From a virus: a stretch of DNA of 64,000 nucleotides. Of the stretch, positions 53,034 through 55,134 are shown one piece after another. The notes below the pieces were generated by a model. That model ran no database searches, had not been told where the DNA came from, and worked only from the letters and a program-made list of their open reading frames with translations. Position 1 is the first letter of the stretch, and each line of letters starts with the position of its first letter. Position numbers and translations under genes: made by a program. Where the stretch lies: the IMG/VR virus record IMGVR_UViG_3300024262_003767. One strand, 5' to 3'.

Positions 53034-54539
53034 TTACTTCTTATCAGGTTTTTCAGTTTTTTTGGTTTTTGCTTTTTCTTCAAGCAATTTAACCATATCT
53101 GCATTACCTTCTAAGAATCCAGGCATATTCTGACCAACCATTTTAAAAGCGTCATCCATTGGAGGAACAGATTTTAAAAGGTTTGTCAACCAATTAGAAG
53201 TAGATGATCCAGCACCTTCACCACCATTACCAGTATCCCAAACTGTGATGTTATCAAATTTAATTTCTTTGATAGCTTCAACTTGAGTTCTAATAATTTC
53301 TGGAAGTTTGTCTGCAATCATCATTTGGACAGCCTTATCAGGATCACCACCCGCTGCACTTACATAAGCGGCAAAACCTTCGGCTTGTTTTGTCATTTGT
53401 TCAAACGTACCACGAGCCTGAGCATCCATCATAAAGAATACTCCATCAGCCTTACCTTTTTCAACTCTACGAATTCTTTCAGCTTCAGCCTCAGCATCTA
53501 CTTCAATTTTTTCTTTTTGAATCTGTGCAGGTACAACAATATCAGCGAATTTTTGAGAACGTTCTCTTTCTGCTCTCGCATCTTCAGCGATTTTCTCAGC
53601 TTTGTATGACTCTTCAAGAGCGTTTGCTGATTTTGTTTTTTGAGCAACGACAATTTTACGATCAGCCTCAGCTTCGGCTTCTCTCCTACCAGCAATAGAA
53701 TTTGCGATTTCAATAGCCGCTTTATTTTCACCATCAACAGCAGTTGAGTTAAAGGCTGCAGTATCAATTCTCATATTCTTATCTGCTTCTTTTTCACCAA
53801 TAACGGCTCTTGAATTAGCAGATGCGACTTTAATTCTTTGCTCTCTTTGAGCCTCAGCGACACCAATATCCCCATCTCTATCTTTCTCAGCAACTGATTT
53901 CTTTGCTTCGTTAATAGCCTGAGCCGCAGCTTCTTTACCAAGAGCCTCAATATAACCAGATTCATCATCAATATCTTTAATATTAACGTTGATAAGTTTC
54001 AAACCAACTTTCTTAAGTTCGTTTTCAACATTATCTTGAATCTTACTCAAGAAAGCGTCACGGTTAGCGTTGATTTCTTCAATAGTAAGAGTTGCGATAA
54101 TCGCCCTCATTTGACCAAAAATAATATCCTGAGCCAACGCTACGATTTGTGTATCTTGAAATCCCAACATTCTTTCAGCGGCATTAATTTTGAATTCATC
54201 TTCTGATGAAATCGCAACGGTGTACGTTGAAGGAACATTTACACGAATATTCTGATTCGAAAGTGCAGATTTCAAATCAACTTCAAAAGACATAGGTTTC
54301 AGAGATAAGAACTTGTATTCCTGAATGATAGGCCAAACAAATACACCACCTCCGTGATATACTCTGGCGCTGGCGTGTCCTGACCGTCCTTGTGAGTCGG
54401 CTTTTCCCTTCACACGCCCATATACAACTAAAAGTTGATCAGAAGGGCACCTTTTATATCTTGCTTTAAAAGTAAAGAAGAATGCGAAAAAGGCAATCGC
54501 TGCTAATCCAATGATAATAGCAATCGAAAATGATACCAT
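53034..54539 (-). CDS. Flotillin-like SPFH/Band-7 protein (YqiK-type)
   Basis: N-terminal TM, SPFH core (CPSDQLLVVYGR...), long EA-rich coiled coil (AEAEADRK, EAEAERIRR). Confidence 0.85.
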   Translation of the reverse strand: MVSFSIAIIIGLAAIAFFAFFFTFKARYKRCPSDQLLVVYGRVKGKADSQGRSGHASARVYHGGGVFVWPIIQEYKFLSLKPMSFEVDLKSALSNQNIRVNVPSTYTVAISSEDEFKINAAERMLGFQDTQIVALAQDIIFGQMRAIIATLTIEEINANRDAFLSKIQDNVENELKKVGLKLINVNIKDIDDESGYIEALGKEAAAQAINEAKKSVAEKDRDGDIGVAEAQREQRIKVASANSRAVIGEKEADKNMRIDTAAFNSTAVDGENKAAIEIANSIAGRREAEAEADRKIVVAQKTKSANALEESYKAEKIAEDARAERERSQKFADIVVPAQIQKEKIEVDAEAEAERIRRVEKGKADGVFFMMDAQARGTFEQMTKQAEGFAAYVSAAGGDPDKAVQMMIADKLPEIIRTQVEAIKEIKFDNITVWDTGNGGEGAGSSTSNWLTNLLKSVPPMDDAFKMVGQNMPGFLEGNADMVKLLEEKAKTKKTEKPDKK

Positions 54540-54567
54540 AATTTTAAAATTTAAATGTTAATAATTA

Positions 54568-55134
54568 TTAATTTGATTTACTTACTTTAACTAAATTATC
54601 TGTGATAAATTCAGTTACAATTACTTGTGAATTTGTATCAATTTTTTCACCAGTTTCTGAAAGAGCGTCAATAGTTCTCAATGCGCCACGAATGGACATT
54701 TGAATTTTTCCTCTCTTATCTTTTCCTGGTATAACCAGATACACGGTTGCAGGTTGTTTCAATACATCATTTTTATCGATGTCATTTGGTGTTGCTTGAA
54801 GTTTTTTGAAACCGAACATAATAGATGCGAAGATGATAGTTAGAACTAAACCAGAACCAACCGAAATTATAATTGATAGCCAAGTATTATAACCTTGTTC
54901 AATGCAAAAAACACCTACCCAACCAAAGAATGCTAAAAAATTAATCAAACTTCTTAGAGTAAATGCTTCACCCATTATACCACTTGCACCATCAACATCA
55001 AAATCACCATCTACGTCACCTATACCATCAGCATCCATATCTGAATCCATTCCGAAAAAGGCAGAACCATTCAAAAATAAAAAAATCGCACCGAATACGA
55101 TTGCGATGATGTAAAATACTGTTAAAAGTGTCAT
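54568..55134 (-). CDS. YqiJ/NfeD-like membrane protein (TM helices + C-terminal OB-like domain)
   Basis: TM-acidic loop (DSDMDADGIGDVDGDFDVDG)-TM-TM, then KQPATVYLVIPGKDKRGKIQMSIRGALRTIDA; immediately upstream of the flotillin gene. Confidence 0.65.
   Translation of the reverse strand: MTLLTVFYIIAIVFGAIFLFLNGSAFFGMDSDMDADGIGDVDGDFDVDGASGIMGEAFTLRSLINFLAFFGWVGVFCIEQGYNTWLSIIISVGSGLVLTIIFASIMFGFKKLQATPNDIDKNDVLKQPATVYLVIPGKDKRGKIQMSIRGALRTIDALSETGEKIDTNSQVIVTEFITDNLVKVSKSN

Follow-up and report, generated by a model that had tools for sequence, protein, structure and literature searches.

Which kind of operon do two adjacent genes of an uncultivated phage represent, where did they come from and what might they do during infection? 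These questions are raised by positions 53034–55134 of a 64,000-nucleotide stretch of DNA (the window) from the IMG/VR virus record IMGVR_UViG_3300024262_003767. On its minus strand, an open reading frame (ORF) of 188 aa at 54568–55134 is followed by one of 501 aa at 53034–54539, as had been given in a preliminary description made by a model from the letters of the DNA. The AT-rich spacer between them (54540–54567, minus strand), put at 29 nt in that description, measures 28 nt and contains neither a hairpin nor a Shine–Dalgarno (SD)-like motif. We find that the pair consists of an SPFH/flotillin protein and a small membrane protein bearing an NfeD-type OB domain. Our confidence in the identity and evolutionary history of the pair is high. 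For the fuller statement, that this is a long-resident phage copy of a Bacteroidota NfeD-like and flotillin operon with a maintenance role, we see an even chance.

The 501-aa protein is encoded by a flotillin gene of the FloT/YqiK type. The Pfam Band_7 model (PF01145) matches residues 33–220 with 106.5 bits against a cut-off of 23.6, which places the SPFH/Band_7 domain at 53880–54443 (minus strand). In an AlphaFold2 model, an alpha/beta SPFH domain follows an N-terminal hydrophobic, predicted transmembrane (TM) helix (residues 2–27), and long Glu/Ala-rich helices come next (196–220, 240–331, 337–395 and 400–424). This long helical, coiled-coil region (residues 196–424; 53268–53954, minus strand) aligns with the helical region of human flotillin-1, a protein with a solved cage structure (9bq2) that is matched over residues 61–459 at E 4e-30. 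The architecture read earlier from the translation, an SPFH protein with an N-terminal TM helix and a long EA coiled coil, is therefore recovered by both the profile search and the model. The NCBIfam FloT model covers residues 9–461 of the 501 with 173.4 bits, whereas the equivalog cut-off (NF058507) is 700; on these matches, the protein is a flotillin-family member below the FloT equivalog level. The match to Escherichia coli YqiK is weak (24% identity, E 3e-14), and the C-terminal Pfam domain Flot (PF15975), which is found in YqiK, in the flotillin of the crAss-like phage csAssE-Sib and in some close relatives of the window flotillin, has no match on the window protein at E ≤0.01. Hidden Markov model searches had been proposed as a check on the pair; they found Band_7 and did not find Flot, NfeD or DUF1449.

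The 188-aa partner yields nothing meaningful in Pfam (at E ≤10, with NfeD, YqiJ_N and YqiJ_OB included), NCBIfam, PHROGs or PADLOC. Its AlphaFold2 model, built from 12 relatives (predicted local distance difference test score (pLDDT) 69.5), exhibits three long hydrophobic helices that are predicted to span the membrane (residues 3–26, 53–79 and 84–113) and a five-stranded C-terminal beta domain (residues 128–186) of medium confidence (pLDDT about 70–77). The modelled domain has the five-stranded OB fold of NfeD proteins and corresponds to residues ~125–188 (54571–54762, minus strand). Between TM1 and TM2 lies an Asp-rich loop of D-x-D repeats (residues ~28–52; 54979–55053, minus strand) that is predicted to be disordered (pLDDT <50 at residues 30–57) and, by the positive-inside rule, cytoplasmic. 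The multi-TM protein with an acidic loop and an OB-like C-terminal domain that had been described beforehand is thus seen in the model. The layout is also that of short-form NfeD proteins, with N-terminal TM helices and a gene directly upstream of an SPFH gene on the same strand; the ClpP-like protease domain of long-form NfeD proteins has no match in this protein of merely 188 aa.

Among close relatives, collected in a narrow profile of phage-type sequences (A1), the acidic loop varies in length and keeps its acidity. In a broad 144-member family profile (A2), cellular and phage members share the loop consensus GDxDxDxDxDxD, and one member, P0005, has a length expansion of about 14 residues. 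The loop also has a weak match (E 0.79) to the thrombospondin type-3 (Ca-binding) repeat, TSP_3; this and weak matches of the protein to CbiN and DUF3732 were set aside as noise.

How firmly can this protein be called NfeD-like? Its close relatives number only 13 among 5.8 billion proteins, and Pfam domains are found in none of them. An exhaustive search with the profile of these relatives retrieved 2,691 cluster representatives of ~190 aa that align end to end. At E ≤0.01, the Pfam NfeD model matches 44 of the 144 sampled family members (best E 4.4e-6); in the one member with a reported score, P0016, the match reaches 25.7 bits, below the gathering score of 29.1. The broad profile A2 has a weak match, over the whole domain, to the soluble domain of Bacillus subtilis YuaF/NfeD2 (2k14; E 1.7e-3) and another to Pyrococcus horikoshii STOPP (3wwv; E 0.13). 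The narrow profile A1 found neither of these and nothing useful among PDB sequences. In BFVD, the single full-length structural match is an uncultured-virus protein named 'NfeD-like C-terminal domain-containing protein'. The NfeD status of the 188-aa protein is therefore argued from its predicted fold and from transitive profile evidence, by which the partner belongs to a divergent subfamily of short NfeD-type proteins that is poorly annotated. The poor Pfam coverage of this Bacteroidota-type partner family, with its ~2,700 cluster representatives, is a practical annotation gap.

In the preliminary description, the partner had been labelled YqiJ/DUF1449 and the pair had been likened to the bacterial yqiJ–yqiK/NfeD–flotillin operon. 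Four tests led us to reject this identity. The domains YqiJ_N (PF21001) and YqiJ_OB (PF07290), which score 58 and 54 bits on E. coli YqiJ as a control, have no match on the 188-aa protein. YqiJ_N is matched by only 1 of the 144 family members, at E 0.0097. E. coli YqiJ, in turn, matches neither A1 nor A2, and a profile–profile comparison of A2 with a 20-member YqiJ alignment gives a probability of 1.7%. The E. coli operon does share the general build, a multi-TM protein with a C-terminal OB domain encoded upstream of a flotillin-family SPFH protein, but YqiJ bears both YqiJ_N and YqiJ_OB whereas the window protein bears neither, and the profiles are unlinked.

The closest operon type is instead B. 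subtilis yuaF (nfeD2)–floT (yuaG), as it occurs in Bacteroidota. There, a short NfeD gene lies directly upstream of, and is co-transcribed with, the gene for a flotillin of ~500 aa, and the FloT model aligns end to end with the window flotillin. The window pair differs in the score of its flotillin (173 bits against the FloT equivalog value of 700), in a partner that has a long acidic D-x-D loop and lacks a direct Pfam NfeD match, and in being phage-encoded with its own leader and terminators, whereas the B. subtilis operon is under sigma-W control. Staphylococcus aureus FloA–NfeD and E. coli QmcA–YbbJ are likewise SPFH and NfeD operon partners. They form joint cage- or clamp-shaped oligomers in which NfeD binds and stabilizes the SPFH oligomer (PMC11222466; Tan et al. 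2024, as cited in PMC13086221). FloA and QmcA, however, are shorter, stomatin-like SPFH proteins and not of the long FloT/flotillin type. The P. horikoshii protein STOPP (PH1510) has the long NfeD form and uses a ClpP-type protease domain to cleave its stomatin partner, PH1511, whereas the window encodes a short form without a protease domain.

Searches of cellular genomes identified the source of the pair. The window flotillin has about ten close relatives at 71–100% identity, after which identity drops to ≤60%; the flotillins below this gap are cellular and come from Bacteroidales, Schleiferiaceae, Proteiniphilum, Roseivirga and others. When 185,579 species, each represented by one genome, were scanned, the flotillins of the best 80 loci proved 49–57% identical to that of the window and nearly all belonged to Bacteroidota; no cellular copy in these species representatives exceeds 57%. 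An NfeD-like gene lies upstream in 75 of the 76 loci, among these best 80, that had upstream sequence and were thus testable, at a median distance of 15 nt; the operon is near-universal in Bacteroidota. Manual inspection of three cellular genomes showed a gene 6–13 nt upstream of the flotillin whose Pfam-less product of 189–196 aa scores 93–108 bits against the narrow phage profile A1. Because the cellular loci carry the same pair, the window holds a whole cellular operon and not two unrelated genes. The chromosomal pairs of Bacteroidota (Proteiniphilum L009 and L010, Roseivirga L011) have the same gene order and orientation, with flotillin identities of 50–60% and partner identities of about 30–37%, and by this comparison their operon family is the direct source family. 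In contrast to them, the phage copies form their own clade, set off by the identity gap, have a spacer of 25–32 nt and have drifted to phage composition in the GC content of third codon positions (GC3).

The time since capture can be judged from composition and substitution patterns. GC3 is 21–25% in the window pair, against a window gene mean of 17 ± 4.5%, and 9–12% in the pair of the related contig L006 (locus GC 21%), against 29–60% in cellular copies. Across five related contigs, the ratio of nonsynonymous to synonymous substitution rates (dN/dS) is 0.10–0.16 for the flotillin and 0.14–0.40 for the NfeD-like gene, at dS values of 0.5–1.8. Compared with the flotillin, the partner has diverged about twice as quickly, and in pairwise comparisons the identities of the two genes rise and fall together (r = 0.905, uncorrected for phylogeny). 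In L006, the pair is retained despite differing flanks. These patterns indicate that both genes entered together, long ago, and that purifying selection has since maintained them as an accessory phage module.

The same data bear on whether the locus is merely passenger DNA, either a recent and functionless host capture or part of a contig that is cellular and not phage. The flotillin does have the highest GC content of all window genes (38%, against a gene mean of 26.9 ± 3.4%), the window yielded no capsid, portal or terminase gene and one relative carries a decayed copy. However, the GC excess is located at codon positions 1 and 2 of a gene whose protein is rich in Ala, Glu and Gly, while GC3 has ameliorated to that of the phage. 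Recent, unexpressed host capture, which the preliminary description had named as the alternative, is ruled out by cellular identities of ≤57–60%, by this match in GC3 and by dN/dS of 0.10–0.40 over the five contigs, and the terminators and leader of the pair are conserved. The phage-type gene content of the window, its multiple homing endonucleases and the relative L017 in IMG/VR argue likewise against a cellular contig. The passenger reading is thus largely refuted, and we regard it as highly improbable.

The decayed copy (positions 1296–3042) lies in L017, a contig from the same sample as the related contig L094 and ~97% identical in flanks, hairpin and leader. Right after the partner ATG, its sequence jumps to about codon 157 of the flotillin, such that the NfeD-like gene and flotillin codons 1–156 are deleted, at a short CAAATG/CAATG microhomology. 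L017 also has an unrelated insert of ~0.6–1 kb with short ORFs and a 46-nt deletion. Because so close a relative holds a decayed copy, the module is dispensable, and thus accessory, in some settings at least. By eye, one of the short ORFs of L017 resembles a truncated integrase N-terminal SAM-like domain.

Is the pair transcribed as a unit of its own? Hairpin terminators had been described on both sides, and both structures are stable, are followed by a U/T-run and exhibit compensatory changes in relatives. The downstream element (52976–53015, minus strand) consists of a hairpin (53015–52984) with a 14-bp stem and a 4-nt loop, followed by a T-run; its free energy of folding (ΔG) is −16.7 kcal/mol, with a z-score of −6.6 relative to shuffled sequences. 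This terminator is kept in 5 of 5 relatives, with compensatory double changes in 5 of 14 pairs, and L006 has a different hairpin in the same place. The upstream element (55189–55233, minus strand) is a hairpin (55233–55196) followed by UAUUUUU, with ΔG of −12.6 and a z-score of −3.8, and was missed by a consensus terminator scan because its stem is AT-rich. L094, L095 and L017 conserve it and L007 has a weaker form, with compensatory changes in 2 of 17 pairs; it is probably the intrinsic terminator of the preceding 151-aa gene, forming the 5′ boundary of the unit. Both flanking hairpins are predicted to be intrinsic (Rho-independent) terminators, and the two genes stand as a discrete unit bounded by them. 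An Rfam scan of the locus returned only a sub-threshold Phe_leader match overlapping the terminator, which was dismissed.

Between the upstream hairpin and the start codon lies a conserved leader or promoter-region element, TAAGTTTAATCTCTAAA (55144–55160, minus strand), that ends 9 nt upstream of the start codon. It is nearly invariant in the window, L007, L094 and L095 despite dS of 0.5–1.1 between these genomes. The element resembles TAnnTTTG, which we take to be the −7 promoter motif of Bacteroidota. A shared promoter class was considered for it and rejected, as the sole exact copy in the window is at this locus and thus no regulon is defined there.

Separate regulation had previously been argued from the lack, upstream of the pair, of the palindromic octamer TATATATA, said to be used by most neighbours. 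This argument fails. Over the whole window, the octamer occurs 20 times where 8.5 ± 3.4 copies are expected (~2.3-fold), mostly in intergenic positions 15–25 nt upstream of start codons; yet it lies within 100 nt of only 17 of 91 crude genes and at only 1 of ~19 genes from 46 to 61 kb. Because so few genes carry it, its absence here is not distinctive. The covarying terminators and the private conserved leader element are better grounds for suggesting separate regulation. The octamer is itself a candidate promoter element for a subset of genes (the 17 of 91), and its sites include 3191, 6513, 19380, 29500, 44076, 52975, 62170 and 62937, one of them directly after the flotillin terminator. In L006, the most divergent member of the clade, the spacer between the NfeD-like gene and the flotillin is 110 nt long (5631–5740); a hairpin within it (AGATTTAACAA...TTGTTAAATCT), with Ts behind it, may act as an internal attenuator.

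A survey of phage databases for SPFH–NfeD pairs, which had been suggested as a check, showed that the complete pair recurs in other phages. Relatives of the window flotillin are encoded in only 10 of 50,697 GenBank phage records. Two of these are complete annotated genomes, those of csAssE-Sib (OR575929) and Vibrio phage KIT04, and two phage proteins already bear the GenBank label 'flotillin family protein'. In csAssE-Sib, a 164-aa 'transmembrane protein' that joins the family profile A2 (~48 bits) is encoded directly upstream of the 'flotillin family protein'. The order and architecture of the pair are the same in csAssE-Sib and ~65 related IMG/VR contigs as in the window, but flotillin identity is 33–39%, partner identity is 23% over 128 BLASTP-aligned positions, and the phage lineage and the flanking genes differ; the comparison suggests that the csAssE-Sib pair was acquired independently. 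In KIT04, by contrast, merely an 82-aa TM protein without a match to the family profile precedes the flotillin.

When IMG/VR was searched with the flotillin alignment, at least 160 loci were obtained. An NfeD-like gene was directly upstream in 85 of the 93 flotillin ORF entries of all loci then retrieved, the exceptions being contig-end truncations, E. coli, KIT04 and L017. About 65 loci are csAssE-Sib-like contigs of 75–178 kb, in which the partners score 46–58 bits against the family profile; at other distant loci they reach up to 97 bits. Further viral contigs carry the pair at 50–54% identity within phage-like flanks (T4 Rnl2, Thg1, ThyA, RecA-like and PolX).

SPFH genes have been listed among host-interaction genes in phage genomes since 2006 (PMC1524935; PMC13384950; PMC13148394). 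Phage SPFH/Band-7 proteins are encoded by the T4-like phages 44RR, Aeh1 and RB43, Xanthomonas phage X1, mycobacteriophage LeBron (gp49) and KIT04, but these differ from the window protein in being mostly short and without a recognizable NfeD partner. The only function reported among them is the cytotoxicity of LeBron gp49 on over-expression (PMC1524935; PMC13384950; PMC13148394). The literature searched, itself incomplete, contained no paper analysing a phage flotillin–NfeD operon, and on the function of phage flotillin or SPFH–NfeD proteins it offered annotations or unrelated cases only, such as phage Perkons integrating into host floA.

The attribution of the window to a phage is strong but indirect. 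The window is 93% coding with about 27% GC and no tRNAs, and its PHROG matches include an SbcC-like nuclease, three HNH/homing endonucleases, a CCA-adding enzyme, a weak virion protein and a phage-type Clp ATPase. The phage-like setting noted at the outset is upheld by this gene content and by the presence of the related contig L017 in IMG/VR; a near-identity DNA search of phage records gave no match. SD-like motifs at −20 to −5 are found in only 8 of 91 crude genes, which, together with the Bacteroidota affinity of the operon, suggests a Bacteroidota-type host with SD-independent initiation. The carrier is probably a large AT-rich phage, a jumbo phage of such a host.

What might the pair do? 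Taken by itself, the pair is a host operon of a known sort that a phage has captured, and its phage role is inferred by analogy with characterized homologues (FloT–NfeD2/YuaF, FloA–NfeD, QmcA–YbbJ and the human flotillin cages). On this analogy, the flotillin would be anchored by its N-terminal helix, and its long helices would drive oligomerization into a cage or dome that sits on the cytoplasmic side of the inner membrane. Recruited through its OB domain, the NfeD-like partner would stabilize the oligomer; joint inheritance and the correlated divergence of the two genes offer indirect support for such a complex. The positive-inside rule, applied to KK after partner TM3 and KARYKR after the flotillin anchor, would place the soluble domains of both proteins in the cytoplasm. 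The assembly would delimit a membrane microdomain that preserves membrane order and would hold unfolded or insoluble membrane proteins without ATP. In the homologues, FloA–NfeD holds unfolded proteins without ATP, with NfeD stabilizing the oligomer (PMC11222466), QmcA–YbbJ is a cage of 26 heterodimers (summarized in PMC13086221) and human flotillins form a 44-mer dome (PMC13000311). The genes floA and floT are under sigma-W and are induced by membrane stress, including phage infection, and an SPFH protein tethers PspA to the membrane (PMC8581546).

Because cellular flotillin operons are stress-induced, a phage that shuts off host transcription would supply its own copy of a stress-type scaffold or holdase, the host copy being beyond induction in the infected cell. 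Over a long infection cycle, the pair would then maintain the function of the host membrane and its proteome, acting alongside the ClpC-like ATPase, ClpS, the M16 and C1 peptidases and a PspC-domain protein. The last of these, noted earlier at position 10020, is a real ORF (81 aa, 10020–10265, plus strand; PF04024, 77.8 bits) located ~43 kb from the pair on the opposite strand. We favour this role in membrane and proteostasis maintenance during infection, while placing its probability slightly short of even.

Several observations count against this account. Pfam NfeD (PF01957) has no match on the 188-aa protein even at E ≤10, an absence that the preliminary description had named beforehand as telling against its reading, and the NfeD status hangs on a medium-confidence model and a weak transitive match (E 1.7e-3). 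The close relative L017 has lost the module. Two PHROG scans of 20 large window ORFs found no capsid, portal or terminase. The neighbouring proteostasis genes are linked to the pair by proximity only and are separated from it by the terminators. Finally, deletion of nfeD2 in B. subtilis has no discernible phenotype (PMC4928834), and multiple SPFH deletions in Pseudomonas aeruginosa have no pronounced one (PMC13086221); because cellular deletions give weak or no phenotypes, the contribution of the module may be subtle.

Bacterial flotillin–NfeD operons are widespread, yet what they do in the cell is debated and deleting them often gives only a weak phenotype. Unrelated large phages, abundant crAss-like gut phages among them, also carry the operon in complete form. 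If several such phages keep it under selection, it would confer a benefit within the few hours of an infection, which would narrow its functions toward acute membrane and proteome maintenance, and phage knockouts would offer a simpler genetic setting for finding a flotillin–NfeD phenotype.

The recurrence in other phages also bears on a different use of such an assembly, namely a phage-specific membrane platform for replication, virion assembly or lysis machinery to which the flotillin recruits phage proteins. Flotillins have been described as scaffolds of multiprotein membrane complexes (PMC5718613; PMC3892786), and in csAssE-Sib the pair is located among replication genes. However, super-resolution work disfavours stable co-clustering of clients with bacterial flotillins, NfeD2 excepted (PMC4928834), no phage-specific partner gene is conserved beside the pair across lineages, and the module is dispensable. 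We consider such a platform quite improbable.

The maintenance role, in turn, has to be weighed against readings that draw on the neighbouring genes. The same-strand flanks encode M16 and C1 peptidases, a cREC_REC protein, an isochorismatase-family protein, NAPRTase, ClpS and a ClpC-like ATPase, in a gene order conserved in L007, L094 and L095. Upstream of the pair, on the minus strand, are a C1 papain-like peptidase (55721–56407; phrog_16701, 208 bits), closest to those of the jumbo phages XacN1, CM1 and RAS14, and an M16 (insulinase-type) peptidase (56432–57583). Downstream, on the minus strand, a ClpS adaptor (49778–50080) lies near the gene for a ClpC/ClpB-like double-AAA+ ATPase with Clp_N and UVR motifs (46956–49472; phrog_4871, 867 bits).

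In such a neighbourhood, the cage might act in the manner of HflK/C, enclosing or gating host FtsH or a phage peptidase; it would govern how stable phage or host membrane proteins are and thereby control lysis timing or the developmental programme. SPFH cages are known regulators of FtsH, and in lambda the cII decision is modulated by HflKC (references in PMC13086221). The M16 and C1 peptidase genes lie 130–1,300 nt upstream of the pair and the ClpC-like and ClpS genes downstream, all on the same strand, and this peptidase/Clp synteny is conserved in L007, L094 and L095. Yet the window protein is of flotillin type and not of HflK/C type, and its partner is a short form without a ClpP-like protease domain. 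In B. subtilis, FloT and FtsH rarely co-localize (PMC4928834). A terminator separates the peptidase genes from the pair, and in L006 and the crAss-like phages the peptidases are not beside it. Protease regulation is, on balance, an unlikely function of the pair.

As separate observations on these genes, no ClpP was seen near the ClpC-like and ClpS genes, and the best phage matches of the Clp ATPase (60% identity) are in uncultured huge phages of 635–642 kb. The C1 peptidase ORF of L095 is 551 aa long and matches the window protein twice, so that it is a duplication or fusion.

Also downstream are a NAPRTase gene (PncB-like; 50077–51375, minus strand; PF04095, 155.6 bits; PF17767, 110.7 bits) and an adjoining gene for an isochorismatase-family protein (51377–52078, minus strand), possibly a PncA-like nicotinamidase. 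The two look like a Preiss–Handler NAD-salvage pair that could counter an NAD-depleting defence. Their arrangement is conserved in L007 and L095.

This setting is relevant to a role of the flotillin pair in counter-defence or superinfection, in which the assembly, possibly with PspC, would protect or repair the inner membrane in the face of membrane-disrupting abortive-infection effectors or incoming competitor phages rather than do general housekeeping. Arms-race genes are typically accessory, and so is this module, which one close relative has lost; it also lies near the genes that could restore NAD, and several phage lineages unrelated to one another have acquired it. The flotillin and Psp systems of cells, moreover, respond to membrane damage, phage infection included (PMC8581546). 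However, neither the pair nor four neighbours match a defence family in PADLOC-DB, and no anti-defence homology is known. In both the window and csAssE-Sib, the module lies among replication and host-takeover genes, where general maintenance fits equally well. Counter-defence therefore seems to us possible but unlikely. Less probable still is its specific form, in which the cage, perhaps with the PspC protein, is an anti-abortive-infection device that seals or buffers the inner membrane against depolarizing effectors, by which many bacterial immune systems kill infected cells. If that were true, the surrounding NAD-salvage pair, ClpC-like ATPase with ClpS and peptidases would form a counter-defence and host-maintenance island, and one shared selective pressure would lie behind the independent acquisitions by crAss-like gut phages and further large phages.

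Directly after the unit, at 52165–52569 (minus strand; PF20274, 75.8 bits; phrog_1479), comes the gene for a cREC_REC (cyclic-phosphate processing receiver) protein, which is conserved in L007, L094, L095 and L017. Farther away, a sensor-kinase-like protein of 726 aa (31774–33954, minus strand) matches sensor-kinase-like PHROGs and may be a phage-encoded two-component sensor. Its best match, at 85% coverage, is in the 735-kb huge-phage genomes LR756501 and LR756503, and other matches are to bacterial histidine kinases of the ArcB/TorS/EvgS type. HNH/homing endonucleases are encoded at 1422–2321 (plus strand), 37324–38334 (minus strand; phrog_559, 286 bits) and 61267–62148 (minus strand), and the gene for a 1055-aa SbcC-like protein (58112–61279) adjoins one of them. 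In L006, an SmpB homologue (3787–4227) is encoded two genes upstream of the pair.

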